A stretch of 64,000 nucleotides of DNA from Acidimicrobiia bacterium (lineage in GTDB: Bacteria; Actinomycetota; Acidimicrobiia; Acidimicrobiales; JANYDT01): positions 2,320 through 66,319 of the forward strand of contig JANOJN010000079.1 of the NCBI GenBank assembly GCA_031418775.1, read 5' to 3'. The position numbers were made by a program, and so were the translations under genes. Positions 10,801 to 25,485 of the stretch are shown in pieces; the stretch's first letter is position 1, and every line of letters begins with the position of its first letter. The notes below the pieces were generated by a model. That model saw nothing but the letters and a program-made list of their open reading frames with translations. It was not told the origin of the DNA and made no database searches.

Positions 10801-11561
10801 TCCACCTTGCCGGCACGGTTGCCGCCCAACGAGGCGACAACGCGCTCGCACGAACGAACTACGAAGCAAGCCTCGAGATCCGCAATCGCTTGGACGATCG
10901 CGGGGCGGCTGCGTCGGTGTTGTCGAACCTCGGCGTGGTCGCGGAGTACGAGGGTGATCTCGCCGGATCGCGCCGATTCCACGAGAAAGCGCTCGGGCTC
11001 CGACGCGAACTGGGCGATCGCTGGGCGCTGGCGGTGTCGCACACGAACCTTGGCATGATCGATATCATCGAGGGGCACGCCGCCGAGGCCAAAGCGTCGT
11101 TCGAGGAGGCGATGCGCCTCAACCAAGAGGTCGGTGATCGGTGGATGGTCGCCATCAGTCACCACAACCTGGCGAACGCGTGCCGAGCAGTCGGTGAGCT
11201 CGACGGTGCCCGCGCCGCGTACCGCGAGGCGGTCGAGGCGTTCGTGACCTATGACGATCAATGGGCCTTGGCGTTCTTGTTCGAAGACGTGGCGTTGCTC
11301 GCCCTTCGGCTCGGTGAACCAATGTCGGCTTGGGAGCTGCTCGGCGCGGCTGATGCATGCCGTAAGTCGGTTGGGTCCCCCCGGCCGGCGGCGATGGAGA
11401 GCGACATGTTGTCCCAACTTGCCGCGGCATCGTCTGACGACGAGGCCAATCCGGACGGCGGAGTGAACGCCAGGGGTCGGGGTGCGGCGGCAACCCGGGA
11501 CGACATGGTCAACGTGGTCATGCAGCTGTGCGACGGCGCCGTCAGTCGTCTCGAGCGCTGA
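7866..11561 (+). CDS. Class III adenylate/guanylate cyclase (two tandem CHD-like domains) - STAND P-loop NTPase - TPR protein
   Basis: 1231 aa. CHD1 has LFADVSGFTALTE and FSGDAVTCW. CHD2 has GDKGAYLYGVFG and CLGDAVNLSARLM. Walker A is SAEAGRGKSRL. The C-terminal third is TPR-like (NLGVVAEYEGDLAGSRRFHEKAL, HTNLGMIDIIEGH, HHNLANACRAVGE). Confidence 0.85.
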   Translation: MADRHRTDHPQAYIPGDRRQALAAGVEMPDRVSGSGLFADVSGFTALTEALATELGPQRGVEELTAVLDLVFQAVIDDITDFGGHVIYFSGDAVTCWLDGDDGSRAAAAALAVQRTMDRVGRVSTPGGRVVELGIKVAIAVGPARRFVVGDPNVQLIDVLAGAIVDELADAEQLAERGEIVLGPSAVAALGELAVISRVPRKQSTATILEGLTDVVVPTERPPEPVVDEALVRPWLLPVVHERLSTGRGEFLTELRSAFPMFVRFGGIDVDADDGPSELDTFVSRAQEVLTSFGGNVLQLILGDKGAYLYGVFGSPVTYGDDASRAAAAALELRSVAADTAARDLQIGIGHGRLRSGTYGHSLRRTFTCLGDAVNLSARLMAGAAPGTIRVTDDVRREAGDRFLWASVGTFPVKGRVEPVQVWTIEGTSFATREREVRYTLPLVGRDQEMAAVAEAADAVRSGSGRVVAISAEAGRGKSRLIAEIVRKLRADGMPVAFGEASVVGSTGSYVVWREVVHTLLGIDETGSDSARIRALRRSLAGIGRSQARRAPLLGPLLGIDVPDTDVTRAFDAKLRKSSLESLILDVLAERTQASPLTIVLEDCHRIDELSRDLLEVLVRGAESLPVLFLLNYRPTGSAGAGLGLESLPFFAEFELSELGPEAARTAAVAKIHQLYGESVRPSITLIDAVVTRAEGNPFYLEQILDFLHGRGLDPTRPEQLDAIDLPASLHSLLLSRIDTLDEGPRRTVKVASVLGRRFEAPTVRRVYPDLGSDTDVITHLRVGRSADLLVSDEDERSSWLFRHVITREVAYQSLPHTLRVDLHERAALDLEERGPEVVESELDLVTHHWCSSDRRDKQIEYLGRAGESAQARYANDAAADYFDRLATLVDGATRADVLLRLGKVLELTGAWDRARAAGTEATLLARDAGDPTLEAWCEVSLAEVARKQARFDDATDHLGRAVDCFDRTDDDAGRGKVLHLAGTVAAQRGDNALARTNYEASLEIRNRLDDRGAAASVLSNLGVVAEYEGDLAGSRRFHEKALGLRRELGDRWALAVSHTNLGMIDIIEGHAAEAKASFEEAMRLNQEVGDRWMVAISHHNLANACRAVGELDGARAAYREAVEAFVTYDDQWALAFLFEDVALLALRLGEPMSAWELLGAADACRKSVGSPRPAAMESDMLSQLAAASSDDEANPDGGVNARGRGAAATRDDMVNVVMQLCDGAVSRLER

Positions 11562-11587: not shown

Positions 11588-13027
11588 TCAGAGGCGGACT
11601 TCGACTTTTCCCCGCGTGCCCCACTTTCCCTGACGGAGGGTGAGGAGCGCGTAGATCCTGACGGGGACCAGGACGAAGATGTGGAGGAGTCCGTAGATCG
11701 GAGCGATGGCGAAGACGAATGTCCGGTCTCGCCGCTTCACACCGTCGCGTCGGTGCTCCAAGTACGCGCTGTTCCGAGCCCATGCGGCCAGCATGACGAA
11801 CACCAACGTGGCCCGGACGTGGGTGAGCTGGCCGAGCATCGGATAGAGCGCTATGGCAACGACGAGCGCGGCGCCCATGACGACCCACATCGCCACCTCG
11901 GCGACGGTGAGCCAGAACGCCGCACTACGCAGGGGGAAAGTGGAAAGCACCCACAGGGACTCTCGGAAGAAGCTCTTGTTCCAGCGCACCTGCTGACGGA
12001 CGTAGTGCGACAGTCGTTCGGGGACGGCCGTGGCGGCGCGCGATCGTTCGGCAAGGACCACCTTGCCCGACCGCAACGCGTAGTTGGTGAGGCGCCGATC
12101 GTCGCCGAAGGTCGCCGTCCTGCCGAGGAAGTACTGGCCGAGGAAGTCGTCGAGGTTGTCCCGGACGACCTCGGCCCGGTAGAAGCTGAGCGAACCGCAG
12201 CAGCAAAGCACCGCACCGAAGGCCGAATAGGCGGCACGCTCGGAGAGGAACGCACTCACGTAGCGAAGATCGATGAGCCGGGTGAGCAGGTTCCGTCGGC
12301 GGTTGTGGGCCGAGACGAGCCCGGCCACTGCGGAAACGCCCGGATCGGAGAACGGCCGCAGACCTTCGACCATCGCGTCGGGTTGGAGGACGGTATCGGA
12401 GTCGACGCAGAGGAAGATGTCGGCATCCAACGCGGCCTCGAATCCATGGGCAAGTGCGTGGCGCTTGCCGACGTTGACGGCAAGGACCGTCACCTCCCAT
12501 TGGACGGAACCGGCATTCGCTTCGAGGTGGCTGCGGACCGCGTCGGCCGCGGCCCCGCCGTCGGTCGAGCCGTCATCGACCACATGGATCCGGTGAAGCG
12601 CTCGGGTCTGGGCAAGCATCGAGGCCACGCCGGCCACCGCATAGGCCGGATCTTCGTTATGGATCGGCATGACGGCGCAAACTCGGAGGCCTGGCGGCGC
12701 CGCGCCGAAGTTCTCCCGTCGCCGATGGAGTTCGGCGACGGTCAGTTTCGTCACCATGGCGCCGATCATCGTGGCCCCGATCCACGAAATCCCGACATCG
12801 AGGTAGATGGCTGCGAACGCGGCAAGAACGATCAGAAGGATCGAGCGAGCGACAAGCCGATCAAGAAGATCGGTCGACCGAGGGCGCGAGTGGCGGCCGT
12901 GGTCACGCAGGAGCTCGTGGCGGGCACGGGCGCTGGAGCGCTGAGCGACGACGAGGAGCACCGCGCCGAGCGTGACGAAGAAGGCGGCCAGCGCTCCCGT
13001 GATGAACCTCGTCCCGACCAACGTCAT
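11588..13027 (-). CDS. Membrane-embedded processive GT2 glycosyltransferase, class I hyaluronan synthase / NodC-like
   Basis: VVDDGSTDGG, VDSDT, CCCGSLSFYR, FGDDRRLTNYAL and QQVRWNKSFFRE motifs, flanked by N- and C-terminal TM helices. Confidence 0.85.
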   Translation of the reverse strand: MTLVGTRFITGALAAFFVTLGAVLLVVAQRSSARARHELLRDHGRHSRPRSTDLLDRLVARSILLIVLAAFAAIYLDVGISWIGATMIGAMVTKLTVAELHRRRENFGAAPPGLRVCAVMPIHNEDPAYAVAGVASMLAQTRALHRIHVVDDGSTDGGAAADAVRSHLEANAGSVQWEVTVLAVNVGKRHALAHGFEAALDADIFLCVDSDTVLQPDAMVEGLRPFSDPGVSAVAGLVSAHNRRRNLLTRLIDLRYVSAFLSERAAYSAFGAVLCCCGSLSFYRAEVVRDNLDDFLGQYFLGRTATFGDDRRLTNYALRSGKVVLAERSRAATAVPERLSHYVRQQVRWNKSFFRESLWVLSTFPLRSAAFWLTVAEVAMWVVMGAALVVAIALYPMLGQLTHVRATLVFVMLAAWARNSAYLEHRRDGVKRRDRTFVFAIAPIYGLLHIFVLVPVRIYALLTLRQGKWGTRGKVEVRL

Positions 13028-13048
13028 GGCGCGACAGCGAACCGCTAA

Positions 13049-13249
13049 CTACCGGGGGCTTTGCGAGGGGAAATCCGCCGACGGCGGTTGGAACAACGAA
13101 ACCCGCGAACTCCGAAGGAGCACGATCCCCAGAACGATGCCCGAGGCCGCGACGGAAACCGTGACCGTTATGAAGGTTTGTCCTATTCCGGTGAACGCGA
13201 GCGTGGCCGGCGCGGCGACCAGTCCTGCTCCGAGCACATTCCCGTACAC
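13049..13249 (-). CDS. Possible small two-TM membrane protein upstream of the GT2 gene
   Basis: 66-aa ORF ending 21 bp before the GT2 start, with two hydrophobic stretches (LGAGLVAAPATLAFTGIG, VSVAASGIVLGIVLL). No recognisable family, and codon usage is less GC3-biased than in neighbouring genes. Confidence 0.25.
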   Translation of the reverse strand: MYGNVLGAGLVAAPATLAFTGIGQTFITVTVSVAASGIVLGIVLLRSSRVSLFQPPSADFPSQSPR

Positions 13250-13413
13250 GAAAGAAGTATCGGGAATCCGTCGCGAAACTTGAGGAGGGGCATCAGTAAA
13301 GGTCGAACGACCCAGTTGGGAAGGCTCCGTTCGGCGGTTGTCTGTTCGACGGGGGACGGCACCGTTCGGGCCCGCTGCTTACGACGGGTTCCCGCGCGCT
13401 GGCGAGGTCCTTC

Positions 13414-13629
13414 TCAGGACTTCAGGGGTGCGTCGGGAAGCGTCCCACCGAGAGGGGCGATCAGCTCCCGGAGGGTGGCCTCCCGGGCCTTGAGCATCCG
13501 CTTGAAGTCGGGGCGGTCGGTGTCGGCGATCTCATAGCGTAGGTCGCGGATCGTTCGGTCGAGCACTTCACGGAGCAGTTCCGCCTGTTCGTCGGTGATG
13601 GAGATGTCCATGAGGTGAATCGCTTTCAT
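13414..13629 (-). CDS. Small hypothetical protein (~71 aa)
   Basis: ORF 13414-13704, with a likely start at the internal MKAIHLMDISITDEQAELLREVL. Helical and charged. No family recognised. Confidence 0.35.
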   Translation of the reverse strand: MKAIHLMDISITDEQAELLREVLDRTIRDLRYEIADTDRPDFKRMLKAREATLRELIAPLGGTLPDAPLKS

Positions 13630-13746
13630 CGCAGGTAACCGGTCGGAGTCGGTCACGGTTCGGTTCGTGGCGCGCGTGGCCGTTGCGTCTCGAACGTAGC
13701 GCACCCGACTTCGAAGGGGCGAGACGAGCCCGCCGCTTCCGCTGCA

Positions 13747-14781
13747 TCAGCGCCCGTGGGTGTTCTCGCGGCGGTGTCCTTCGGCGAGCCGGGAGAGCCG
13801 CACGGTGTCGATGTCATTGGCCGGCACGGCGGCCACCTTGCACTCGGTTACGGCGCGCAGTGTCGCTGTTCGGTGTCCACCTTCCAGGAGGCCACGTTCG
13901 CCCAAGACAGCGCCCGGACCCAACTCGGCAATCTTCTCGCCGTCGACCTCGACAACGAGGACGCCGTTGAGAAGCAGGAAGAGTTCGTCGCTGCACGAAC
14001 CCTGCTCGACGAGGGCGCCGCCTGCTCTGATTCGGCGAATCTCGGGTCGCTGGCTTCCCCGCATGATCGCGCTCTGGAGCTCTCGCTCAAGGGCTGATTC
14101 GACCGCGGTGACCAATGTCGGCGAGTCCTCGTCACCCCATGGCGTGCGGTGACCGAACGACTCACTCATCCATTTCTTGTATTCCGCGACGCTGCTCTTC
14201 GCGACAAGCGAACCCGAGTCGTCGAACAGCCAATGACGCGGAAAACCAGACGCCCCGGCGAATGTCGCCTCGTGGGTACCGTCGGTTCGGATGATGAGCT
14301 CGAGCGTCGTCCACACGATTGGGGCGTGGTACTGGACGAATGGCGGATGTTTGACTGCCCGGGGCATCGGCGCTCCGGTTCGACCCCCGACGGTCTGCGT
14401 GAAGCGGACGTAGTCGGCGCCGATCTCCGGTTCGCTTCGACGATCGTCGAGTCTGATGGCCGGAACGGTGATCGATCCAACGGCGAGGCCTACCGTCGTT
14501 GCTCCCATGACGCCGCCGCCGCTGTAGCCGGCGTTGACGATCCGATGGGAGTCGTCGACCTCGATGAAGGCGCGGAGATGGTTCGCGAAACGGAACCCGT
14601 CGGCGATGCGGAGCTCCGCGAGAGTCGCGGAGATGTCGGCGCCCAGCGAGATCGGCGGCGGCGGATCGTGATGGGCCATCTTCATGCGAGTCGCGATCTT
14701 CCCCATTCCTTCGAGGAGGTCCGACGGGATCCACGAGACGGTGGCGACGCTGCGTTCGTATCGAGTGGAGGTAGTGGACAT
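13747..14781 (-). CDS. Protein with an uncharacterised ~230-aa N-terminal domain fused to a C-terminal cyclic nucleotide-binding domain
   Basis: The C-terminus has a cNMP-binding cassette (GPGAVLGERGLLEGGHRTATLRAV). The N-terminal domain (VSWIPSDLLEGMGK...YHAPIVWTTLELIIRTDG...FPRHWLFDD) matches nothing I recognise. Confidence 0.75.
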   Translation of the reverse strand: MSTTSTRYERSVATVSWIPSDLLEGMGKIATRMKMAHHDPPPPISLGADISATLAELRIADGFRFANHLRAFIEVDDSHRIVNAGYSGGGVMGATTVGLAVGSITVPAIRLDDRRSEPEIGADYVRFTQTVGGRTGAPMPRAVKHPPFVQYHAPIVWTTLELIIRTDGTHEATFAGASGFPRHWLFDDSGSLVAKSSVAEYKKWMSESFGHRTPWGDEDSPTLVTAVESALERELQSAIMRGSQRPEIRRIRAGGALVEQGSCSDELFLLLNGVLVVEVDGEKIAELGPGAVLGERGLLEGGHRTATLRAVTECKVAAVPANDIDTVRLSRLAEGHRRENTHGR

Positions 14782-14970
14782 GGCTTATCGTGAGCCGATG
14801 AAGAGGGGAGCGAGAAGGGCGGAGCCCGGCGCTTCCCCGGTGTGGCTGGCACACCCCGGACCGGTGGGGCGCACGCCCTGGTATTGAGCGCCGCCTTCCC
14901 TGTTCAATGAATGCGTGAACAACGGTCGGTTGCTCCTCGTGCGCGGCCCGGGCACGCACGGTCGGACAAC

Positions 14971-17439
14971 GTGAGAGCGGTCGTCTACCGGTACCGGTCG
15001 ACGCTCCGATCCAATTGGCGTTCCTGGACGGTCCTCGCCCTGGCGGTCGGTCTCGCATTGAGCTTCGCTCTGGCAGCCGCAGCGGATGCCCGGCGCACCG
15101 ACACCGCATTGCCCCGGGCACTCGCTTCCGGGCGTTCAGCAGATGTGTTGGTGAGCGGTGATCAATCAGCGATGGGCCGCTCGGCAGCGCTTTCCTACCT
15201 CGACGAGATCGAGCACCTTCCCGGTGTCGAGCGATCGACGCGGATCGGCGGCGTGTACCTCGTTGAGCTCAACGAAGACGGCAGTGAGGGCACGCGCCTG
15301 TCCTTCGGTTCTGCCGTCGGGAAGCTGATCTCATCGCCGGGACCTGAGGGCGTGGAGACGCTTCGGCTGCTGAAGGGCCGGTTGCCCGCGACCGATCGAC
15401 CGGAGGAGGTGATCGTGAATCCGGAACTATCGCGCGTCACCGGGTGGAAGATCGGCGACCGGGTGACATCGTTGCGGTTGGTTCGCCTGGAGGGCTTCGG
15501 CAAAGACGGCAACGCCGACCCGAAGACGGGTGAGCCGCTCGAGCTCACGATCGTCGGCGTGGGACGCCTCCCGAATGAGCTGCTCGACTCCGCGTCAAGC
15601 CGCAAGCCGCAGGTGTATCTGTTCCCTGCGTTTGCGGCGGCCCACCGCGACTCGACCTACTACATCTCGTCGGCGTTGAAGGTCTCCGATGTCGACTCGA
15701 AGATTGTGGAGCTCCGCTCGCAGGTCGAGAAGCTCGTCGACCGCTATCCCGGTGCACAGGTCCTCTTCTCGGTGACGAACGACGCTCGGGTGGCTGTCCA
15801 GAACGCGTTGCGACCGCAGGTCACGACGATCTGGCTACTGGGCGCCGTCCTGTTTTTCGCTGGTCTGTTGTTGGGCGCGCAGGCGATCGGCCGCCAGATC
15901 CTCTCCCACAATCGTGATGCGCCTGCCCTTCGGGCCCTCGGCATGGCACCTCGCGATCTCGGTGCTCTCGCCATGCTGCACGGAATCACGATCGCCGTTG
16001 CCGCGTCGATCACCGCCCTCGTGGTCGCGTGGTCCTCGAGTGCGTTCACACCGTTCGGTTCGACACGAGCTGTCGAGCCGTCACCCGGACTCAGGTTCGA
16101 CGGCGCTGTACTCGGACTGGGAGTGCTCGTGATCACCGCGACACTTGCCGTCGCCTCGTGGTTGTCGGCGATGCGCGTCACCAGGTTCTCCGTTCCCTCA
16201 CCCCGTGGAGCACAGGCTTTCGGCGGGCAAGGTCGGCCATCGCGTTTCGTGAGCTTGTTGGCGTGGGCCGGCCTGCCTCCGACCGCAGTGACGGGCTCAC
16301 GTTTCGCACTTCAGCCCGGCATCGGGCGGGATGCGACCCCGGCTCGCAGCGTCCTTTCCAGCATCGCGCTTGCGGTCGCCGTTGTCGCGGCCGCGGTCTC
16401 GTTTGCTTCAAACCTGAACCACCTCCTCGGCACGCCGAGCAACTACGGCTGGGACTGGGACGTCGGCGTCGGGAACGTCTTTGGCCCGATCCTCGACGAC
16501 GCGGTGGAGGCAATTCGCGCCCGACCCGAGGTCGCTGCGATCGCCGCGTTCTCCTACGGCAACGTTCGCATCGACGGAACGTCGATCGCTGCTGTCGGGT
16601 TCGATCAGCTCGATGGAACCGTCTTCCCGACAATGATCGACGGCCGGATACCGCAGGGGGAACGCGACATCGTTCTCGGCCCTCTCAGCATGAAGAAGCT
16701 CGGCCGCTCCATCGGCGACCGGGTCGACGTGGAAACCGGCCACGGGATGCGCACGATGACGATCGTGGGCACCGCGACCTTTCCGGCGATCGGGAACACC
16801 CGTACCAGCAACACCGGTCTCGGCACCGGCGCCGCGACCGTCGCTTCCGTGTTTCCGCCCTCTTCGGACCCCTCGGAGGGCCGGTTCAATGGCGTGTTCC
16901 TCCGGATCGATCCGACACTCGATCGGGCAACAGCAACGGAATCACTTCGGAAATTCTTCATCGAGCAGGGTTGCACCGATTCGGGCTGTTTCTTCACCGA
17001 CGGGAAGCCCGCCGCCCTGAACGGCTACGAATCGCTGGGAGCGGTGTGGCTGCCGTTCGCCGCCGCAGTTGGCGTGTTGTTCGCGATCTCCCTCGCCCAC
17101 GGCATCGTCACCACGACGAACGCCAGACGGCGCGATCTGGCCATCATGGCCGCACTCGGTCTGACCCGGCGTCAGGCAGGTCGCGTTGTGCTCTGGCAGG
17201 CGGCGACGACCATCGGGGCTGCGCTCACCGTCGGTGTACCTCTCGGCATCTTCAGCGCCAACGTGCTGTGGGGAATCTTCTGCGGGCGTCTCGGTCTGCG
17301 ACGCAGTCCGAGCATCCCCGTTCTGCGGTTGATGGTCCTCTCGTCATTGGCGATGGTGAGCGCACTTGCGGTCGGTCTCGCATTCGTTCCTTCGACCCGC
17401 AAGGCCACCGCGGCCGGTCTTTCCGTGACCGCCGAGTGA
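14971..17439 (+). CDS. FtsX/MacB-type ABC transporter permease (duplicated 4-TM module with large extracytoplasmic domains)
   Basis: ~820 aa with two clusters of TM helices separated by long soluble segments. Sits with a MacB/LolD-type ATPase gene in the same operon. Start uncertain (GTG 14971, or 14911). Confidence 0.75.
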   Translation: MRAVVYRYRSTLRSNWRSWTVLALAVGLALSFALAAAADARRTDTALPRALASGRSADVLVSGDQSAMGRSAALSYLDEIEHLPGVERSTRIGGVYLVELNEDGSEGTRLSFGSAVGKLISSPGPEGVETLRLLKGRLPATDRPEEVIVNPELSRVTGWKIGDRVTSLRLVRLEGFGKDGNADPKTGEPLELTIVGVGRLPNELLDSASSRKPQVYLFPAFAAAHRDSTYYISSALKVSDVDSKIVELRSQVEKLVDRYPGAQVLFSVTNDARVAVQNALRPQVTTIWLLGAVLFFAGLLLGAQAIGRQILSHNRDAPALRALGMAPRDLGALAMLHGITIAVAASITALVVAWSSSAFTPFGSTRAVEPSPGLRFDGAVLGLGVLVITATLAVASWLSAMRVTRFSVPSPRGAQAFGGQGRPSRFVSLLAWAGLPPTAVTGSRFALQPGIGRDATPARSVLSSIALAVAVVAAAVSFASNLNHLLGTPSNYGWDWDVGVGNVFGPILDDAVEAIRARPEVAAIAAFSYGNVRIDGTSIAAVGFDQLDGTVFPTMIDGRIPQGERDIVLGPLSMKKLGRSIGDRVDVETGHGMRTMTIVGTATFPAIGNTRTSNTGLGTGAATVASVFPPSSDPSEGRFNGVFLRIDPTLDRATATESLRKFFIEQGCTDSGCFFTDGKPAALNGYESLGAVWLPFAAAVGVLFAISLAHGIVTTTNARRRDLAIMAALGLTRRQAGRVVLWQAATTIGAALTVGVPLGIFSANVLWGIFCGRLGLRRSPSIPVLRLMVLSSLAMVSALAVGLAFVPSTRKATAAGLSVTAE

Positions 17440-17515
17440 CGGGTGTGCTGGCACCACCGAAGGACACGGGCTCACGCCCTGTGCGTGAGTCCGATCGAGG
17501 AGTTGAATCAACCAC

Positions 17516-18940
17516 ATGGGAGCAATCACGGTGTTCATCGCCGACGACAGCGTCTTCATCCGTGAGGGAGTGAAGGCCATGTTGTCTCGACAGGCCGATA
17601 TCGAGATCGTCGGCATCGCGGAGGACTACGACGGACTCATCAGCGGAGCGGAGGCCACTGCCCCGAACGTCGTGGTGAGTGATATCCGGATGCCGCCCAA
17701 CTTCCATCGGGAAGGCATCGAGGCCTGCAAGATCATCCGCAAGGCGCACCCCGGTACCGGCGTTGTCATCCTCAGTCAGTATGACGATCCGGACTACGCG
17801 ATCGCGTTGCTTTCCGAAGGTGCCAGCGGTTACGGCTACCTGCTGAAGGATCGCATCGCCGAGGGCGACCAGTTGGCTCGCGCGATTCGGGAGGTTGCCT
17901 CTGGCGGATCGATGCTCGATCCCGTCATCGTCAGTGCGCTGATGAGTCCGGTTCGGCGAACCGGCGGGTTGGACGCCAGCGACGACGCGTTGCTCGAGAT
18001 GGTGGCAGAAGGTAAGCCGATCAAGGCGATCGCGATCGCCACGAAGTCGACGCCGGGCGCCGTGGAGACGAGAGTGGAGAACCTGTTTCTGCGGCTCGCC
18101 GAAGGTGTGTCGGCCGGTACCGCGGGTTCGCTCGACCGTTTGAAGCGGCTCCACGTGGCGATTGTGTCGCGCGAGGAGCAGGGCGAGTCGCTTTCGCGTC
18201 TCCTGCCGACGGGGGTCGCCGACCGTATTCGTGCCCGAGGTGCGCATGCCGGCGACACCGAGGAGCTCAACGTGACCGTTCTGATGAGCGACATCCGCGG
18301 GTACACGACCATCAGTGAACATACTGATCCGTCGAACCTTGCTCAGCAGCTCAACCGTCACCGCTCGGAGATGAACAAAGCGATTCTTTCGGCCGGTGGA
18401 ACGGTCATGCAATACGTCGGTGACGCCGTGATGGCCGTCTTCGGAGCCCCGGAGCCGTGCACCGATCACGCCGATCGCGCCCTGGTCGCCGCACACGCGA
18501 TGCACGCCGCCCAGGACGCGGTGAACAACAGCTGGATTGCCCAAGGTCTCGAACCCTTTCCCCTCGGCATCGGGCTTTCGACAGGCGACGTCGCCGCCGC
18601 CCTGCTCGGCTCGGAAGAACGGCTCGAGTACACCGTCGTCGGCGACGCCGTGAACCTCTGCCAGCGGCTCCAGCAGTTCGCCATCGACGGCGAGACCGTC
18701 GTCAGCGATCCGACCTGGGAGCAATTCACCCAGAAGCCGGAGGCAGAGGATCTCGGTCCGCAACTGGTGAAGGGACGCTCCACGCCCGTGCGACCACGCA
18801 AGATCGCGTCACGCAACCAACCCCGCCAGCAGTCGCCGGACAGCAGTCCCGAATCGTCCGATTCGGCCGGCCGGCCGGCGCCTGGCCCAATCGACAAGAA
18901 TGCGGAACGTCCGCTCGTTTCCCAGGAGGCAATGCCGTGA
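17516..18940 (+). CDS. Response regulator: NarL-type REC + degenerate LuxR HTH + class III nucleotidyl cyclase domain
   Basis: REC domain (FIADDSVFIREG...VVVSDIRMPP...YLLKD). HTH remnant (LLEMVAEGKPIKAIAIATKSTPGAVETRVENLFLRL). CHD domain (VTVLMSDIRGYT, YVGDAVMAVFG, VVGDAVNLCQRLQ). Confidence 0.85.
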   Translation: MGAITVFIADDSVFIREGVKAMLSRQADIEIVGIAEDYDGLISGAEATAPNVVVSDIRMPPNFHREGIEACKIIRKAHPGTGVVILSQYDDPDYAIALLSEGASGYGYLLKDRIAEGDQLARAIREVASGGSMLDPVIVSALMSPVRRTGGLDASDDALLEMVAEGKPIKAIAIATKSTPGAVETRVENLFLRLAEGVSAGTAGSLDRLKRLHVAIVSREEQGESLSRLLPTGVADRIRARGAHAGDTEELNVTVLMSDIRGYTTISEHTDPSNLAQQLNRHRSEMNKAILSAGGTVMQYVGDAVMAVFGAPEPCTDHADRALVAAHAMHAAQDAVNNSWIAQGLEPFPLGIGLSTGDVAAALLGSEERLEYTVVGDAVNLCQRLQQFAIDGETVVSDPTWEQFTQKPEAEDLGPQLVKGRSTPVRPRKIASRNQPRQQSPDSSPESSDSAGRPAPGPIDKNAERPLVSQEAMP

Positions 18941-19698
18941 GCATCGACACGCTTTCCGATCAGAGCGTCACTCCAGGAGGAGAAGCGGCCGTGACCTCGG
19001 GCGTCGATCTCGTGGTCGATGTCCGGCAGGTGTTTCGAACGTTCGAGGCCGACATGGCTCCGGTCCGAGCCCTACGCGGTGCCGACCTGTCCGTTTCGCG
19101 TGGCGAGTTCGTTGCTGTCATGGGTCCGTCGGGGTGCGGGAAGTCGACCATGCTCAACATCATCGCCGGACTCGATATCGCCGACGACGGGGAGGTGAGC
19201 GTCGCCGGACAGCGACTCGACGGCAAGACCGAGAGCGATCTCGCGATCATGCGCCGTCGACACATCGGAATCGTGTTCCAGTTCTTCAACCTCCTCGAAG
19301 GAATGACGGCGCTGGAGAACGTGCTCATGCCGGCCCTCATCGCCGGGCGCAAACGAAAGGCGGCCGAGACCAGGGCCCGCGACCTGCTCGACCTCCTGGG
19401 CATCGGCGACAAGGCCAAACAGGCGCCCGCCTCTCTGTCGGGCGGTCAGCGTCAGCGGTTGGCCATTGCGCGCGCTCTTGCCAACGAGCCGACGCTCCTG
19501 CTGGCCGACGAGCCCACGGGCGCTCTTGACTCGGCCGGAGGCGACGAGGTTCTCGAACTCTTCACCCGTTTGCATCGCAACGGCCAGACGATTCTTCTGG
19601 TCACCCACGACCAACCGGTCGCCGACGCAGCCCAACGGATTGTCCGAATGAAAGATGGTCGCGTCATCGATGACGGGCGCGGCGCGCCGGTGGCGTGA
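18937..19698 (+). CDS. ABC transporter ATP-binding protein (MacB/LolD-like)
   Basis: Walker A GPSGCGKST, signature LSGGQRQR, Walker B LLLADEPT. GTG start at 18937 overlaps the regulator stop (GTGA). CAGGAGG lies 8 nt upstream. Confidence 0.9.
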   Translation: MSIDTLSDQSVTPGGEAAVTSGVDLVVDVRQVFRTFEADMAPVRALRGADLSVSRGEFVAVMGPSGCGKSTMLNIIAGLDIADDGEVSVAGQRLDGKTESDLAIMRRRHIGIVFQFFNLLEGMTALENVLMPALIAGRKRKAAETRARDLLDLLGIGDKAKQAPASLSGGQRQRLAIARALANEPTLLLADEPTGALDSAGGDEVLELFTRLHRNGQTILLVTHDQPVADAAQRIVRMKDGRVIDDGRGAPVA

Positions 19699-19735
19699 CG
19701 CACCGCTCGAAGGCACAACGAACGAACGAGGGCAC

Positions 19736-21865
19736 GTGAGCTCCCAATCGTGGGCGGGACGAGTGGTGTTTCCAGCAGGCGACGGAGACACCATCCGTCG
19801 ACGTTCCACCGCGCTCGTCGCCTGGGTCGCAGCATTGTTCATGAGCGTATGGGCCCTCGGTCTGTCACTTCGGACGGCGGCGATCTCGCCCACGGTGGTC
19901 ATCGTGGGTGCTGTAGGTCTGATGTGGTCCCTCGGAGCGGGAATGGCGGTTCGACGAAGCCCAACCCGGTGGAATGCAACGGCGCTGGCGCTTGCCGCAG
20001 TCGTCGCGACGGGCGCGCTCTCATGGTCGGCGAACAGGTCGACCGGTCTTTCCGGACCGGCATCCATGCTGGCGGACGCAGGCGAGCGCTTCGCGCTGAC
20101 GCTGACACCCGTTCTCGTCCTCCATCTGCTCCTGACGCTTCCGGACGGCCGACTGGCCGGCACCGGCTCGCGCCGCGTTCTTCTCGGCGCATATGCCATC
20201 GCCGTTGTGCTCGCTCTGGCGCTGCTCGGCGATCGAGACACGGTGAGCGCATGGCCGATCGTTGCGCTGTGGGTCCTGACGGTTGGCGCTCTCCCCATCG
20301 CTCATGCGAGTTACCGCTCCGCGAGTGTTCTGACGCAGCGTCGGATGCAGTGGACCGGATGGGGAGCCGTTGTTGCGATCGAGATCGCGTTGGTCGCGGG
20401 GGCTTTGACGCTCGCCCTCGGCTGGCCGGACCACGCGGCTGATGTGGCGCTGGTCGCGTCCGGGCTGTTGCCGATGTCGATCGCCGCAGGTACGGTTCCC
20501 CGGCTCCTGTCCCGAATCGACAGGCTGCTCACGCACACGGTGTCGGTGACCGGGCTGACCGTGCTCATCGCGGCGGCGTACCTCTTGGCGTTGGCCGCGT
20601 TCGGGCGCCGACCGTCGGGCAGCGAGCGGTCGCTGTTCGTGCTCTCCATGGCCGCAGCCGCTGGCGCGGCGCTTTGCTATCAACCGGCTCGGGCCTGGCT
20701 CGGGGATCGCGCGAACCGGGTTGTCTACGGAGAACGGGTGTCTCCCGATGAAGCACTCCGGACCTGGAGCTCGCGTCTTTCCCGGGCAATCCCGCTCGAC
20801 GAGCTACTTCTGCAACTTGCGGAGACCCTGCGGAAGTCCCTGCAACTGCGAAGTGCGCAGATCTGGACCGGCAGCCACGGGCATTACGAGGTCGCCGCGA
20901 TGGTTCCCCATCGGCCGACCTCTCCGCTCACCGTTGGCGAGAAGGAGCGTGCCGTCGTCAGTCGGGCCGGCGTCTCGGGCGGAACGTGGCTCGACATCTG
21001 GCTGTCGGGCCTCGTCGGGCCCGACGTCACGGCATCGACGAGGGTGGCCCCGATCGCGCACAGTGGTGAGATGCTCGGTCTGATCGTATGCGAACGAAGT
21101 AGTGATGCCGCTTCCTTCACCGAGGAGGACGACAGAGTGCTGACCGAGTTGGCGCGACAGGTTGGGCTCGCCCTTCACAACGTGCAACTCGACACGGCGT
21201 TGCAGGCGTCGCTGGATGAGCTCCGTCGAACGAACGAGGAGTTGCGGGCGTCCCGTATTCGCATTGTCGCGGCAGGAGACACGGAACGGCGAAAACTGGA
21301 GCGGAATCTTCACGACGGTGCCCAACAGCATCTCGTCGCGCTTGCAGTGAAGCTCCGGCTCGCGAAAGACGCCGTCGTCGACGACCCGGCCGACGCCGAG
21401 TCGATGATCGACGAGATCCGCGGCAACCTCCAGGAGGCGATCACCGAGCTGCGTTCTCTTGCCCATGGCATCTTCCCGCCATTGCTCGTCTCCGGTGGGT
21501 TGGGCGAAGCCCTACCGGCGGCCGCGGCCAGAGCGGCTCTGCCGACCATGGCCGAGGTGAACGTTGCCCGCCATCCACAAGAAGTCGAGGCGGCGATCTA
21601 CTTCTGCTGCATGGAGGCACTGCAAAACGCCGGCAAGCACGCCGGCGACAAGGCCAGCGCGCTCGTGCGGGTCTGGGAGGACGCCCAGTTCCTGCACTGG
21701 GAGGTTTCCGATGATGGTCTCGGGTTCGACCAGACCAATGGCCGCGGCGACGGACACGGTTTCGTGAACATGCGCGATCGCATGGGCGCTTTCGGTGGAA
21801 CGGTTGCTGTCGTGAGTGCGTCCGGCCGGGGCACCTCGATACACGGATCGGTACCGTTGGCTTGA
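19736..21865 (+). CDS. Multi-TM sensor histidine kinase (GAF-like + HisKA_3 + HATPase_c)
   Basis: H-box ERRKLERNLHDGAQQHLVAL, ATP-binding motifs EALQNAGKHAG and DDGLGFD...GHGFVNMRDR, and a long hydrophobic N-terminal half. Start is either GTG 19736 or the overlapping 19655. Confidence 0.85.
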   Translation: MSSQSWAGRVVFPAGDGDTIRRRSTALVAWVAALFMSVWALGLSLRTAAISPTVVIVGAVGLMWSLGAGMAVRRSPTRWNATALALAAVVATGALSWSANRSTGLSGPASMLADAGERFALTLTPVLVLHLLLTLPDGRLAGTGSRRVLLGAYAIAVVLALALLGDRDTVSAWPIVALWVLTVGALPIAHASYRSASVLTQRRMQWTGWGAVVAIEIALVAGALTLALGWPDHAADVALVASGLLPMSIAAGTVPRLLSRIDRLLTHTVSVTGLTVLIAAAYLLALAAFGRRPSGSERSLFVLSMAAAAGAALCYQPARAWLGDRANRVVYGERVSPDEALRTWSSRLSRAIPLDELLLQLAETLRKSLQLRSAQIWTGSHGHYEVAAMVPHRPTSPLTVGEKERAVVSRAGVSGGTWLDIWLSGLVGPDVTASTRVAPIAHSGEMLGLIVCERSSDAASFTEEDDRVLTELARQVGLALHNVQLDTALQASLDELRRTNEELRASRIRIVAAGDTERRKLERNLHDGAQQHLVALAVKLRLAKDAVVDDPADAESMIDEIRGNLQEAITELRSLAHGIFPPLLVSGGLGEALPAAAARAALPTMAEVNVARHPQEVEAAIYFCCMEALQNAGKHAGDKASALVRVWEDAQFLHWEVSDDGLGFDQTNGRGDGHGFVNMRDRMGAFGGTVAVVSASGRGTSIHGSVPLA

Positions 21866-21924
21866 GACGTTGCTGCTCGGCGAGCGGCCGGCGTCAGCCC
21901 TGTTCAGAAATCGCTGCCTCGGGC

Positions 21925-22359
21925 TCAGCGGCCGTGCGTGATGTAGTCGCCCAACGCCGTCGCCTCATCTTGGATCTCGGCAACCCGGCGTTTCACGACG
22001 TCGCCGATGCTGACGATACCGACGAGGGCTCCGTCTCTGATCACGGGAAGATGACGTATGTGCTGCTCGGTCATCGCGCTCATCAGCTGTTCCATGGTGT
22101 CCGTGGGCGAGCAGGTGATCACGTTGGTCGTCATCACGTCACGGACCGCCCGTTCGAGAACCGCCGCTCCGTCTCGTGAGATCGCCGCCACGATGTCACG
22201 TTCACTGAGAATGCCGGCAACGGCGCCGTCGGGGGCAACCACTACGAGAGCCCCGATGCGTCGCCTCCCGAGTTCGGCCACAGCGGAGAGCAACGTCTGG
22301 TCCGGGCCGATCGTCGCGACCTCAGATCCTTTTCCCTGTAAGACACCGTCGACGCGCAT
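21925..22359 (-). CDS. CBS-domain pair protein
   Basis: 144 aa with two CBS-like repeats (ALVVVAPDGAVAGILSERDIV; HLPVIRDGALVGIVSIGDVV). Confidence 0.85.
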   Translation of the reverse strand: MRVDGVLQGKGSEVATIGPDQTLLSAVAELGRRRIGALVVVAPDGAVAGILSERDIVAAISRDGAAVLERAVRDVMTTNVITCSPTDTMEQLMSAMTEQHIRHLPVIRDGALVGIVSIGDVVKRRVAEIQDEATALGDYITHGR

Positions 22360-22533
22360 TGCTGCCTCCTTGGCGCGATGCGGACCGGTTTGCGCCGCAT
22401 CTGTGTCCTGATCGTAGGCCGACCCCGACGAACGTGCACGGCTCGTTGAAGAGGGGCCGTTTGTTGTGACGACCGTCCCTCCGGTGATGGCATACGAGCT
22501 AGCGGACCGGAAGGCGGTTGCCGCTCCGAACGA

Positions 22534-22962
22534 TCACGCGGGATCGCGGCGCCAGGTGGGATCGCCGCCGGCCTCCCAGAGGCGACGCACGAAGCGGGGA
22601 GAGAGCTCGTCCTTGTTGACGTAGGCCACGGCACCGCATGAGCGCGCGCCGGGAGGGAGGTCGTCGACGGCGTAGGTCGACACGAGGATGACGAAGGTTT
22701 CGGGGAAGGTCATCGTGATGATGCGTGTCGCCTCGACGCCATCGATCGCCCCCATGTTGATGTCCATCAGCACCACTGCAGGACGCAATTCCTCGACGAG
22801 GACAACTGCTTCCTCCCCCGAGGTGGCTTCGCCGACGAGTTCGAAACCCGGGACCCGAGCGATCACCGCTCGGGCGGCGTCGCGGAACGGAGCCTGGTCG
22901 TCAACGACGAGAACGCGAATGCTGTCGACATCGGACCTGCTCGAATCTGTCGGTAGGTTCAT
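22534..22962 (-). CDS. Stand-alone receiver (REC) domain protein
   Basis: IRVLVVDDQAPFRD...VVLMDINMGAIDG...AYVNKD, with no output domain. Start is ATG 22962 or ATG 22977. Confidence 0.8.
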   Translation of the reverse strand: MNLPTDSSRSDVDSIRVLVVDDQAPFRDAARAVIARVPGFELVGEATSGEEAVVLVEELRPAVVLMDINMGAIDGVEATRIITMTFPETFVILVSTYAVDDLPPGARSCGAVAYVNKDELSPRFVRRLWEAGGDPTWRRDPA

Positions 22963-22997
22963 AAGCACACATCCCATGACACGTACAGCTTGACCGT

Positions 22998-23711
22998 TCA
23001 GCGAGGAGGTGAGAACCGTGCTGTTACCTCGGTCGAGGTGTTGCCAGCATCACCACTGGACAGGAACATCAACACGGCGCTCACCCGTCGATTGACGTCG
23101 GGTTCCTCATTGAGATGCAGCTTCGAGAAGATCGCGTTGATGTGTTTCTCCACTGCCCGCTCAGATAGGACAAGCGCAGCGGCGATCGCCGCGTTGGACT
23201 TCCCTTGTGCCATGGCGCCCAAGACCTCTCGCTCGCGTGGCGTGAGGAATTCGAGTGGCGTCTTCGTCGACCGGCGTGATGAGGCGACGAGGTGCTCGAC
23301 AACCTGGGGGTCGATGACTGCGCCTCCTGCGGCAACCACTCGCACCGCTTCCAGAAGATCGTCGACGGCGGCAACGCGGTCCTTGAGCAGGTACCCGCGG
23401 CGCGCCGACCCCCCGGCCAGAAGGGTGACCGCATAAGCCGGAGAGACGTACTGGCTGAGCACGATGACGCCGATCTCCGGATTGGACTCACTGAACACAG
23501 CGGCTGCTCGGATTCCTTCGTCGGTGCCGGTCGGAGGCATGCGGATGTCGGTGATGACGACGTCAGGCCGGGACTCGTCAACCACGGCGAGAAGCGTGTC
23601 GTAGTCGACAGCCGTGCCGACGAGCTCGAACCCCGCGCTCGACGAGAGCAGACGCGCCAGGCCATCGCGCAACAGTGCGTTGTCTTCGGCGACAACGACT
23701 CGAATTGTCAT
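22998..23711 (-). CDS. NarL/LuxR-family response regulator
   Basis: Starts at MTIRVVVAEDNALLRDG. REC domain (VVITDIRMPP...YLLKD) plus LuxR HTH (LTPREREVLGAMAQGKSNAAIAAALVLSERAVEKHINAIFSKL). Close paralogue of the REC domain at 17516-18940. Confidence 0.9.
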   Translation of the reverse strand: MTIRVVVAEDNALLRDGLARLLSSSAGFELVGTAVDYDTLLAVVDESRPDVVITDIRMPPTGTDEGIRAAAVFSESNPEIGVIVLSQYVSPAYAVTLLAGGSARRGYLLKDRVAAVDDLLEAVRVVAAGGAVIDPQVVEHLVASSRRSTKTPLEFLTPREREVLGAMAQGKSNAAIAAALVLSERAVEKHINAIFSKLHLNEEPDVNRRVSAVLMFLSSGDAGNTSTEVTARFSPPR

Positions 23712-23939
23712 GGGTGCAATGTAGCGGTGCGGGGCAGAAGGGGGCAGTGAGCGCGGGTCGGGCCGATGACGGGCACGCCGGGGTGAGGATACGAACGCGA
23801 CTCCTGTGTCGTGAGAGTGCAGACCTTCGTGTTGGGGGAGGGCTGGCATCACCTCGTGTCCGCGTGCCCGCGCCCTTGGTCGAGCGCTGCGGTTCACCGA
23901 AGCTGTTCTCCCCGTAGAGTCGGGGTCAAGGAGTTAGAT

Positions 23940-25367
23940 GTGAGCGCGACAACCATCGATGCCGTTGTCGTCGGGTCAGGACCCAATGGGCTCGTTGCCG
24001 CCGTCACCCTGGCGATGGCCGGTCGCTCGGTTGTCGTCCTTGAGGCTGACCCGACGATCGGCGGAGGAACCCGCAGCGGCGAGCTCACCCTCCCGGGGTT
24101 CGTGCACGACATCTGCTCGGCGATCCATCCGCTCGGTGTCGGGTCGCCAGTGATGTCATCACTGCCCCTGGCCGATCACGGCCTGCGGTGGCTGCACCCG
24201 CCCGTGGCCCTCGCCCATCCGCTCGAAGATGGACGTGCCGGACTGGTGACCCGCGACGCAACGGAGACTGCCGACGGTCTCGGGAGCGATCGCGAAGCGT
24301 GGCGCCGGCACATCGGTTCGCTTTCGGAACGCTGGGGGACGTTGCTGCCGATGCTGATGCGTCCGCTCCCGCAGGTTCCGCGTCACCCCATCACGCTCGC
24401 CCGTTTCGGCCTCCCCGCGCTCGCCCCGGCAACACGCCTGGGGAACCACTGGTTCGAGGCCGACGAAGCCCGCGCATTGTTCGCCGGGTCGGCCGCCCAC
24501 GCATTCCTTCCCCTGTCGCGTCCGATGACCGCGGGCTTCGGGCTGGTCCTGTTGGCGTCAGCGCACGCGGTCGGGTGGCCGGTCGCCGCGGGCGGCTCGC
24601 AGGCCATCGCCGACGCGTTGGTGTCGCTGCTTCGTAAGCACGGCGGAAAGGTGGAGACGGGCCGGTGCGTGACGTCGTTCGCCGACATCCCTGAGTCGCG
24701 TGCGGTGCTCTTCGATCTCTCTCCCACACAGGTCGCCCGTATCGCCGGCGACCGCCTACCACTGCGTTACCGGCGCCGACTCGAAGCCTTCCGGCATGGG
24801 CCGGCGGCCTTCAAGATCGACTACGCCCTCGCCGGTCCGGTTCCGTGGACCAACGAAGGTTGCCGTCGGGCCGGCACCGTCCACGTGGGTGGATCGGCGG
24901 AAGAAGTTGCGAAGGCGGAGGCCGAGGTTGCGGCTGGTCACCACCCTGACCGTCCGTTCGTGCTGGTCGCCCAGCAGTCGATCATCGACCCGTCCCGCGC
25001 TCCCGATGGGACGCACACTCTGTGGGCGTATTGCCACGTCCCCAACGGATCGACCGTCGATATGACGGTGGCGATCGAACGACAGATCGAACGGTTCGCT
25101 CCAGGTTTCCGTGATCTGGTGCTTGCCCGCCACGTCGCCACCCCGGCGTGGTTCGAAGCGCACGATCATGCCTACGTCGGTGGTGACATCAGCGGTGGCG
25201 CCCACGACGGCGTGCAGTTGCTCTTTCGTCCGTTGGTCGGACGGCCCTACCGAACGCCGAACCCGAGTATCTTCCTCTGTTCGGCTTCGACACCCCCGGG
25301 CGGGGGAGTGCACGGGATGTGCGGGTTCAACGCCGCACAGGTTGCTCTGCGAGGTCCTCTCCAATAG
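23940..25367 (+). CDS. FAD/NAD(P)-dependent oxidoreductase, phytoene-desaturase (CrtI)-like family
   Basis: Rossmann motif VVVGSGPNGLVAAVTLAMAG at the N-terminus. GTG start at 23940 has AAGGAG 6 nt upstream. Confidence 0.75.
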   Translation: MSATTIDAVVVGSGPNGLVAAVTLAMAGRSVVVLEADPTIGGGTRSGELTLPGFVHDICSAIHPLGVGSPVMSSLPLADHGLRWLHPPVALAHPLEDGRAGLVTRDATETADGLGSDREAWRRHIGSLSERWGTLLPMLMRPLPQVPRHPITLARFGLPALAPATRLGNHWFEADEARALFAGSAAHAFLPLSRPMTAGFGLVLLASAHAVGWPVAAGGSQAIADALVSLLRKHGGKVETGRCVTSFADIPESRAVLFDLSPTQVARIAGDRLPLRYRRRLEAFRHGPAAFKIDYALAGPVPWTNEGCRRAGTVHVGGSAEEVAKAEAEVAAGHHPDRPFVLVAQQSIIDPSRAPDGTHTLWAYCHVPNGSTVDMTVAIERQIERFAPGFRDLVLARHVATPAWFEAHDHAYVGGDISGGAHDGVQLLFRPLVGRPYRTPNPSIFLCSASTPPGGGVHGMCGFNAAQVALRGPLQ

Positions 25368-25485
25368 GCGCAAGGGACGCGGCTGGGCCCTTCGACCCAC
25401 TCGCTCGCCCGAAGCCGTCAGATCAGTTCCGGCCCCGGTTCGACCCGACTCAAGACGACGGTTTCATCCGCCGATCGACAAGGCC

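Follow-up and report, generated by a model that had tools for sequence, protein, structure and literature searches.

A conserved signalling neighbourhood of Acidimicrobiia predicted to link a sensor kinase and three receivers to a cyclic mononucleotide and its reader

The locus considered here raises the question of whether a response regulator fused to a nucleotide cyclase, a divergently encoded protein that binds cyclic nucleoside monophosphates (cNMPs), a sensor histidine kinase as well as a MacB-type ATP-binding cassette (ABC) transporter, all encoded side by side in a 64,000-nucleotide stretch of an Acidimicrobiia genome (contig JANOJN010000079.1, positions 2,320 to 66,319; hereafter the window), belong to a single signalling circuit, as a preliminary description of the sequence had proposed. 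The analysis presented below indicates, with a probability that we place at roughly 65%, that the locus is a conserved and self-contained signalling neighbourhood of the Acidimicrobiia in which a kinase would act through receivers on a cNMP and its reader. The conserved core consists of the divergent cNMP reader, a regulator made up of a receiver (REC) domain, a degenerate helix-turn-helix (HTH) and a class III cyclase (hereafter REC-cyclase), a multi-transmembrane GAF HisKA_3 kinase, a stand-alone REC protein and a NarL regulator (Table 1). Gene calls were taken from a six-frame list of open reading frames (ORFs) and domains from Pfam and NCBIfam scans, and the ORFs and domains first described for the permease, the regulator-cyclase, the ATPase, the kinase and the cNMP-binding protein were recovered in this way.

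Synteny was assessed by tblastn of the window proteins against 80 species-level genome loci, with denominators that vary with the available flank, and a set of 80 metagenome contigs was used as a second comparison. The arrangement was confirmed to recur, beyond chance, in many species-level genomes. The reader gene is directly divergent from the REC-cyclase gene in 48 of 73 genome loci, with a median gap of ~155 base pairs (bp), and lies somewhere in the locus in 63 of the 73. A HisKA_3 kinase gene is found downstream of the REC-cyclase gene in 44 of 52 loci, the REC-only protein is encoded in 50 of the 52 loci with enough flank, and the canonical NarL regulator in 48 of 52. A reverse search was also carried out, in which metagenome contigs were collected by alignment to the N-terminal domain of the reader, and among the 32 loci flanked on each side by 1.5 kb or more, 22 were found to carry the REC-cyclase. 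Both directions of search thus bear out the original proposal that kinase, REC-cyclase and divergent reader form one functional neighbourhood, and a putative circuit running from kinase to cyclase to reader is supported by this synteny.

It could be that these genes are mere neighbours in a signalling-rich region and have no functional link, especially as the window also encodes several unrelated signalling proteins, among them a further cyclase, a further cNMP-binding protein and one CBS protein, and the flanking genes differ among genomes. However, the same gene set is present in 80 species genomes despite shuffling of the local order, cyclases are found again when the search starts from the reader, the locus contains overlapping start and stop codons, and an upstream DNA box is shared, all of which makes chance adjacency highly improbable.

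The neighbourhood is widespread, being conserved in hundreds of Actinomycetota, most of them uncultured. At least 344 relatives of the REC-cyclase were detected when one genome per GTDB species was scanned, and the best 80 of these, at 60% identity or more, cover several classes at 60–98% identity. Carriers among the best 80 are chiefly Acidimicrobiia, together with Nitriliruptorales, Nocardioidaceae/Aeromicrobium, Streptosporangiaceae and Dormibacteria, while the nearest proteins belong to Ilumatobacteraceae and other metagenome-assembled genomes (MAGs) of the Acidimicrobiia. Aquihabitans sp. McL0605 (L024) is a cultured carrier with a complete genome. Two contigs with the module carry the MAG labels Gammaproteobacteria and Myxococcaceae (L034 and L067), and mis-binning is here likelier than transfer, since both contigs are short and their cyclase, 62% identical to the query, shows an identity like that of the Acidimicrobiia copies. 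One Microthrixaceae locus (L059, positions 3873–7327) contains a second REC-cyclase and reader pair, again divergent, ~74 bp apart and a few kb from the main copy, which may reflect duplication of the whole pair. Neither a REC-HTH-cyclase nor the gene set was found described in the full-text literature searched.

Table 1. Positions in the window of the genes and DNA elements of the neighbourhood, with the loci of the two-kinase clade
Feature	Position	Strand	Remarks
MBL-fold phosphodiesterase-like protein (protein X)	6921-7757	-	Pfam Lactamase_B_2, E 2e-19; candidate cNMP eraser
cNMP reader	13747-14781	-	344 residues; beta-rich N-terminal domain (residues 1-240) and C-terminal cNMP-binding domain
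DNA box, copy 1 (GGTGTGGCTGGCAC...GCCCT)	14838-14888	+	ahead of the permease gene; nhmmer E 2.3e-6
Double-FtsX permease (MacB-type, type VII ABC)	14911-17439 (start may be 14971)	+	Pfam FtsX twice, MacB_PCD twice
DNA box, copy 2	17440-17489	+	centred ~65 nucleotides upstream of the REC-cyclase start; nhmmer E 3.9e-8
-10-like hexamer TTGAAT	17503-17508	+	7 nucleotides before the ATG
Response regulator fused to nucleotide cyclase (REC-cyclase)	17516-18940	+	REC, degenerate NarL-type HTH, helical linker, class III (IIIb-like) cyclase
MacB/LolD/FtsE-like ABC ATPase	18937-19698	+	Pfam and NCBIfam; start overlaps the cyclase stop (GTGA)
Sensor histidine kinase	19655-21865 (start may be 19736)	+	~8-9 transmembrane segments, GAF, HisKA_3, HATPase_c (Pfam, hydropathy)
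Stand-alone receiver (REC-only)	22534-22977	-	Pfam Response_reg
Canonical NarL/GerE response regulator	22998-23714	-	Pfam REC and GerE
DNA box, copy 3 (weak, uncertain)	23841-23880	+	between the NarL and flavoprotein genes; nhmmer E 0.035, first model only
CrtI/amine-oxidase-like FAD-dependent oxidoreductase	23925-25367	+	beyond the NarL gene; frequent member of the neighbourhood
Two-kinase clade loci	L029, L032, L034-L036, L046, L049-L052, L061, L068, L071		no ATPase or permease

The REC-cyclase was studied in terms of its domains and active-site residues. The receiver matched Pfam Response_reg (E 2e-16) and the cyclase domain matched Pfam Guanylate_cyc (PF00211; residues 252–422, E 3e-21, 76.1 bits against a cut-off of 21.9), and the closest relatives of the cyclase domain in the Protein Data Bank (PDB) are Cya2, CyaB and CyaC. 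The protein was aligned to these three proteins and to 13 orthologues at 69–86% identity. The metal-binding residues D259 and D303 and the transition-state residues N380 and R384 fall on the catalytic positions of CyaC, CyaB and Cya2 and are invariant across the 14 diverse orthologues, so that a loss of catalytic residues, which would have argued against the proposed circuit, finds no support. The receiver residues D10, D11, D56, S87 and K111 are likewise invariant, giving a complete acidic pocket and phospho-acceptor set. The segment preceding the catalytic core (…LSRLLPTGVADRIRARG) resembles the usual helical entry into class III domains, and this fits control through dimer geometry.

The base-specifying pair of the cyclase is Gln299/Thr373, of which Gln299 is near-invariant and Thr373 invariant, and it differs from the canonical Lys-Asp/Thr and Glu-Cys/Gly pairs. 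The position of Gln299 is occupied by Lys in adenylate cyclases and by Glu in Cya2, and Thr373 is found as in class IIIb enzymes. The product is uncertain because of this pair, with cyclic AMP (cAMP) the most likely putative product. Mycobacterial Rv0386-type cyclases (cyclase, ATPase, LuxR HTH) resemble the REC-cyclase in that a class III cyclase and a LuxR-type HTH share one polypeptide. They differ in that their domains come in the opposite order, a receiver is lacking, a STAND ATPase is included, and Asn takes the place of Thr as second specificity residue. Rv0386 also has a Gln at the canonical Lys position and reportedly produces cAMP together with some cyclic GMP (cGMP) as a guanylate cyclase side activity. 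An alternative mechanism of substrate binding, with unusual substrate selection by Rv0386, is noted in PMC3466318.

One further interpretation of the Gln/Thr pair is that the enzyme makes cGMP or a pyrimidine cNMP that is read by the co-encoded reader only, so that the locus would form a private second-messenger channel inside a two-component system, with the type VII ABC machine and its fast-evolving ectodomains as the stimulus receptor that feeds the kinase. The N-terminal domain of the reader would in that case represent a previously unrecognised class of cNMP-controlled effector, with the flavoprotein, the metallo-beta-lactamase (MBL) enzyme or the ABC machine as its possible targets. We consider this rather unlikely, and favour the more general reading of a circuit from kinase through receivers to a cNMP and its reader.

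The principle of such a circuit has precedents, since receiver-gated class III cyclases (CyaC) and nucleotide messengers driven by two-component systems (PleD, WspR) are already known. In the REC-GGDEF regulators PleD and WspR, two-component phosphorylation dimerises a nucleotide cyclase, which then makes a diffusible messenger; the logic is the same as that proposed here, with a different catalytic domain and a different messenger (cyclic di-GMP), and the likeness is one of analogy only. CyaC is a hybrid in which a kinase and other sensor domains are part of the same polypeptide. The cyanobacterial CyaC proteins of Spirulina and Anabaena, which together with CyaB and Cya2 are the nearest solved relatives of the cyclase domain, are similar to the REC-cyclase in that a receiver controls a class IIIb-like cyclase. 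They differ from it in having Lys/Thr and not Gln/Thr as specificity residues, and the present system in turn features fusion to a complete NarL-type regulator with a degenerate HTH, a separate membrane kinase, and a co-encoded reader and putative eraser. The established precedent is the activation of CyaC by phosphotransfer (Kasahara and Ohmori 1999, cited in PMC1183210).

The other end of the proposed circuit is the reader. Its C-terminal domain was matched by Pfam cNMP_binding (residues 249–326, E 1.7e-14), and the intact cNMP-binding cassette that had been pointed out in the preliminary description is indeed present as a canonical GERGLL…HRTATL sequence (E295, R304-T305-A306-T307), with E295 invariant and R304, T305 and A306 near-invariant in the phosphate-binding cassette. 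A Thr after the cassette Arg is also found in cGMP-selective sites and in HCN channels, and does not decide the ligand. A role for the reader as a CRP/FNR transcription factor was considered and rejected; the cNMP domain is C-terminal with no HTH after it, and the CRP model aligns to the cNMP domain alone.

The N-terminal domain of the reader was explored further. A Pfam scan of 30 members assigned it to no family, and a profile search of the PDB gave no sequence relative. An exhaustive HMMER search collected 987 clusters at 50% identity, mostly proteins of ~335 residues that combine the N-terminal domain with a cNMP domain. The AlphaFold model, built from a diverse alignment, is a confident all-beta structure (predicted local distance difference test score 86.6, predicted template-modelling score 0.82), and a Foldseek comparison with the PDB returned 3c5p, a Bacillus anthracis protein of unknown function, as its sole and weak match (E 1.5e-4, template-modelling score 0.42–0.50). 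Foldseek gave no match in a viral structure library, a literature search for BAS0735 yielded nothing on the function of the domain, and with the full-length reader model the structural matches were restricted to cNMP domains. The domain family is large, without assigned function and nearly always fused to a cNMP domain, and these features mark it as a candidate cNMP effector of a new kind.

The reverse search also showed that at least four other reader loci carry a different class III cyclase, and in three of these the cyclase adjoins the reader, namely a CHASE2-cyclase (L123) and two cyclase-AAA/NB-ARC-TPR proteins (L145, L103). The reverse-search loci thus point to a cyclase, whatever its input domain, as the recurrent partner of the reader.

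The pairing of a cyclase with a cNMP-binding protein is shared with the Pycsar anti-phage systems, and the possibility arises that infection would induce a cyclic nucleotide and so activate a toxic cNMP-binding effector. The two genes are adjacent, the base-specificity pair is non-canonical, and the PADLOC models PycC and PycTIR match the cyclase domain (E 1e-21) and the cNMP domain of the reader, respectively. Note, however, that PADLOC scores these proteins no higher than the generic Pfam model does, and the match is one at the level of the domain alone. The reader has no TIR domain and no transmembrane segment by Pfam and hydropathy, and thus neither type of toxic effector domain, and no viral structural relatives were found for its N-terminal domain. 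A receiver domain controls the cyclase, whose gene lies in a two-component operon, and the identity of 60–98% with stable synteny over 80 species and several classes describes a stably inherited neighbourhood unlike patchy defence islands. An anti-phage function is, on these grounds, extremely improbable.

The HTH of the REC-cyclase requires qualification. The domain order REC-HTH-cyclase had been proposed initially, and its REC and cyclase portions were borne out by Pfam; GerE was not detected by Pfam in this protein even at E = 10, and the HTH is supported by full-length alignment alone, where this region aligned in matches to VraR, DevR and NarL. The N-terminus of the REC-cyclase aligned to the neighbouring NarL protein with 41% identity over 188 columns (hhalign probability 99.9) and, judged by this similarity, is a paralogue of the canonical NarL/GerE regulator. 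Among the 52 loci with both proteins, the recognition-helix segment is the least conserved segment of the REC-cyclase. By contrast, no part of the canonical NarL regulator is more conserved than its recognition helix. The HTH of the REC-cyclase would therefore seem to be a relic, now serving as a linker or dimerisation scaffold.

A candidate site for a DNA-binding regulator was found in the intergenic regions. The motif GGTGTG(G/C)CT(G/A)GCACC(A/C)CC, followed after ~10 nucleotides by …CCCT, has the core GGTG-N7-CACC (also written GGTGTGGCTGGCACC) and was located by nhmmer upstream of the REC-cyclase gene in 33 sequences including the window. The box was also present ahead of the permease gene in L002 (E 5e-6) and, with weaker scores, in L007 (E 4e-3) and L031 (E 3.4e-2), and once upstream of a kinase gene. 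The position of the third window copy also matches in L002. In L043 and L047, weak matches (E ~0.6) were seen at the position equivalent to the third copy, there ahead of a permease gene. Between the box and the REC-cyclase gene, an nnAAyT-type element ends mostly 6–9 nucleotides before the start codon in at least 15 loci. This suggests that the REC-cyclase mRNA is leaderless, which would put the box at roughly -40 to -75, where activator sites lie.

Other explanations for the conserved intergenic sequence were examined. An RNA leader or riboswitch upstream of the cyclase gene, suggested by a GC-rich motif that resembled, on inspection, two hairpins with compensatory changes, was rejected after RNAalifold analysis of 23 instances revealed a 4-bp invariant stem with covariation of ~0, and an Rfam scan of positions 13000–24500 gave nothing credible, with one chance-level match at E = 1. 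The position of the conserved -10-like element, mostly 6–9 nucleotides before the start, implies that the box region is untranscribed, and this position, the lack of covariation and the lack of an Rfam match together lead us to read the box as a DNA operator. A scan for sigma-70 consensus promoters and terminators returned nothing informative, with no sigma-70 match found. A sigma-54 promoter (TGGCAC-N5-TTGC) was dismissed as a chance fit to one subclade, its spacing not being conserved; to our knowledge, Actinomycetota are without RpoN.

The box could be the target of either NarL-type protein. If the REC-HTH-cyclase were mainly a transcription factor that bound the box, with its cyclase domain acting as a dimerisation or regulatory module, then an alignment spanning the full NarL fold, including the HTH, and a box upstream of its own gene would be expected, and both are seen. 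This is nevertheless very unlikely, as the catalytic residues are all invariant, GerE is undetected, and conservation within the REC-cyclase is lowest in the recognition helix when the box itself is conserved and the helix of the canonical NarL regulator highly so. The box was assigned to the latter protein because its recognition helix is conserved and that of the REC-cyclase is variable, and the canonical NarL regulator probably binds the GGTG-N7-CACC box.

The organisation of the ABC genes relative to the REC-cyclase gene was then considered. As described, the cyclase stop and the ATPase start share the letters GTGA, at 18937–18940. The permease, regulator, ATPase and kinase genes had been taken for a single translationally coupled unit; this does not hold for the permease gene, since the 76-bp gap that separates it from the regulator gene holds the conserved operator/promoter-like element, and only the regulator and ATPase genes, perhaps with the kinase gene, look coupled. 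The ATPase gene is directly next to the REC-cyclase gene in 41 of 70 loci. In 18 of 44 loci its start codon could overlap the cyclase stop by 4 nucleotides, and about a dozen others have a start one base beyond the stop (together ~30 of 44); the overlap also appears in independent gene calls of two loci (L081, L082). A metagenome ORF of 673 residues (P0024) joins the REC-cyclase to the ABC ATPase, with Pfam matches to REC, Guanylate_cyc and ABC_tran, and may represent a read-through or frameshift at the 4-nucleotide overlap or a genuine fusion.

The transporter proteins themselves are of the MacB/FtsEX type (type VII), with FtsX domains, a MacB-like ectodomain core and a MacB/LolD/FtsE-like ATPase. 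Hydropathy analysis of the permease revealed eight transmembrane segments, arranged as two repeats of one segment, an ectodomain and three segments, and thus two extracytoplasmic domains. The ATPase aligned to the NCBIfam models for MacB, LolD, DevA and FtsE at E 1e-61 to 1e-64, below the equivalog cut-offs, and its Walker A, signature and Walker B motifs are readable in the sequence. Of the 31 loci that have the ATPase, 27 also have an FtsX permease gene within 10 kb, against 0 of the 13 loci that lack it (Fisher p = 4.6e-8), and this marks permease and ATPase as a true pair. The permease gene may stand after the ATPase gene, beyond the NarL gene, upstream of the reader gene or between the reader and cyclase genes, the last arrangement being that of the window, L002, L003, L006 and L081, and some loci hold two to four permease genes. 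The permease also diverges much faster than the cyclase and ATPase (in one comparison 86–90% identity for the cyclase and 68–76% for the permease, in another 71% and 40–55%).

The ATPase is restricted to the larger clade, and both ATPase and permease are missing from 13 of 44 long-flank loci. Of the five genes whose joint occurrence across relatives had been named at the outset as a check, the reader, the REC-cyclase and the kinase do recur, with a variable position for the permease and a clade that has no ATPase. For these two reasons, the splitting of the transporter by the regulator gene, to which attention had been drawn, is not a conserved feature and is local to the subclade of the window.

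The preliminary description had also drawn an analogy with Bce-type modules, and the locus might be a Bce-like detoxification module in which the FtsX permease and ATPase act as sensor and regulated resistance pump, with the two-component system serving to control them and cyclase and reader as a side branch. As in BceRS-BceAB of Firmicutes, an FtsX-family (type VII) ABC transporter is encoded, and co-occurs, with a two-component system; the ATPase gene is translationally coupled inside the two-component operon, the permeases co-occur strictly with the ATPase, some permease genes share the box of the cyclase operon, and the rapid evolution of the permease fits an interface with changing external ligands. 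The architecture, however, departs from that of Bce systems on every point compared (permease, kinase and type of regulator). BceB has 10 transmembrane segments and one large ectodomain, as opposed to eight and two here; BceS has two transmembrane segments and no sensor domain, where the present kinase has ~8–9 and a GAF domain; and the OmpR-type regulator is replaced here by three receivers of NarL-type or stand-alone form. In addition, the 13 loci mentioned above and the two-kinase clade keep the core with no ATPase or permease, the ABC part being dispensable in one clade. A detoxification module is accordingly somewhat unlikely, and the kinase, receivers, cyclase and reader are preferred as the centre of the system.

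The clade without ATPase and permease encodes, after the REC-cyclase, two tandem multi-transmembrane GAF HisKA_3 kinases. One kinase of L071 gave a weak HisKA_7TM match. No NKFDE-type cNMP-sensor motif was seen by eye in the kinase GAF domain. A CBS-pair protein is encoded between the kinase and REC-only genes (21925–22359, minus strand); it occupies this position in the window and L002 only, and is therefore not a conserved member of the module.

A putative means of removing the signal was found in the MBL-fold protein X. Its gene comes immediately downstream of the reader gene on the same strand, with a gap of 0–90 nucleotides, in 41 of 56 loci from genomes and in 35 of 64 from metagenomes; the window copy is displaced from the reader and is 49.6% identical to that of L043. 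The protein has the MBL fold and the HxHxDH signature, here H69-L-H71-W-D73-H74 (HLHWDH), which is invariant in the alignment. The entire protein could be aligned to the NCBIfam model for a 'cyclic nucleotide-degrading phosphodiesterase' (NF041851), at a sub-threshold E of 1.3e-12, and Pfam PDEase_II gave no match. The fold and motif are shared with class II phosphodiesterases (YhfI, yeast PDE1, Apyc1), although protein X falls far below the family cut-off. Degradation of cNMPs by MBL-fold class II phosphodiesterases is described in PMC9117128. From its genomic context, a role for protein X as cNMP eraser is a reasonable inference.

The CrtI-like flavoprotein has homologues of 36–91% identity in 31 of 80 loci from genomes and in 23 of 80 from metagenomes. 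Its gene often comes directly behind the MBL gene, and in the analysis that revealed protein X about half of the loci had it there or at another place; the window copy is displaced from this usual place. Together, these results show the unit to be larger than first described, extending to three receivers, to a putative eraser and a flavoprotein, and to an operator that is shared. The genes originally named were correct, and those overlooked were the stand-alone REC, the NarL regulator, the MBL gene and the CrtI-like flavoprotein, along with the upstream DNA box.

A mechanism can be proposed in which the membrane GAF/HisKA_3 kinase would sense a membrane or envelope cue via either its polytopic or its GAF domain, or by way of the ABC machine in the larger clade, and would then phosphorylate the three receiver proteins. 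Phosphorylation of Asp56 would cause the REC-cyclase to dimerise, creating a two-subunit active site and leading to synthesis of a cyclic mononucleotide. The reader would bind the cNMP through its canonical cassette and relay the signal via its new beta-rich N-terminal domain, and protein X, usually co-transcribed with the reader, would probably remove the signal. In parallel, the NarL regulator would probably bind the box and induce the cyclase-ATPase-kinase operon and the FtsX permease genes, and the stand-alone REC may be a phosphate sink or connector that modulates phosphate flux. In the larger clade, the MacB/FtsEX-type machine, with its coupled ATPase and fast-evolving permeases, may be either a signal input or a regulated output. 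Domains, catalytic residues, synteny, co-occurrence, gene overlaps and the DNA box are the observations on which this scheme is built, and each biochemical step is drawn from them.

Several findings weigh against this scheme. The pairing of the kinase with the receivers is inferred from gene adjacency, and the promoter and leaderless mRNA are read from conservation of the sequence. In the cyclase, Gln stands where the canonical Lys (adenine) or Glu (guanine) is expected. Protein X scores 47.6 bits against the NF041851 cut-off of 400, which places it outside that family, and its closest solved relatives are RNase Z/ELAC, with a C-terminus that resembles RNase Z. The N-terminal domain of the reader showed no recognisable function in the Pfam, PDB and Foldseek searches. 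About 20–40% of reader genes are not beside a REC-cyclase gene, so that the reader may serve several cyclases, and in the window a second, STAND-type cyclase is encoded 2.2 kb from the reader. Finally, a whole clade does without the ATPase and permease, so that neither is essential to the core.

Abundant as they are in soil, freshwater and marine samples, the Acidimicrobiia have received essentially no study, and what is known of cyclic-mononucleotide signalling in Actinomycetota comes almost entirely from mycobacteria, corynebacteria and streptomycetes. The proposed system would give the Acidimicrobiia a complete circuit, amenable to testing as a whole, with a kinase as input, a writer gated by its receiver, a candidate eraser, a dedicated reader, and a transcriptional branch that has an operator of its own. 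It would also offer a natural example of a NarL-type regulator turned enzyme, with a paralogue that keeps the DNA-binding role. The uncharacterised reader domain, the Gln/Thr cyclase and the link to a type VII ABC machine are the notable features in this abundant class; no link between a MacB/FtsEX-type machine and nucleotide signalling was found in the literature searched.

The module and its surroundings in the window, from ~3.5 to 25.4 kb, form a dense cNMP-signalling island. The second cyclase (7866–11561, plus strand) is a protein of 1231 residues with one or more cyclase homology regions, AAA_16 and TPR in a STAND-like arrangement. It was considered as a part of the module and rejected, being non-syntenic in the REC-cyclase loci and absent from L002, which is 91% identical. 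The reader homologues of L145 and L103 adjoin cyclases of this same architecture, and the 7866–11561 cyclase may also feed the reader in the window. A second, small cNMP-binding protein of 214 residues (6280–6924, minus strand) overlaps the gene for protein X by 4 nucleotides at 6921–6924, and is followed by the gene for a 920-residue membrane protein (3521–6283, minus strand) with weak TLC-transporter and HEAT-repeat matches. Collinearity with L002, at 91% nucleotide identity over 13414–28933, ends at 13414, ~330 bp past the reader stop codon, and a GT2 glycosyltransferase gene (11588–13027) and the STAND cyclase gene are absent from the corresponding part of L002. This break in collinearity suggests that an insertion or rearrangement has parted the reader from protein X.

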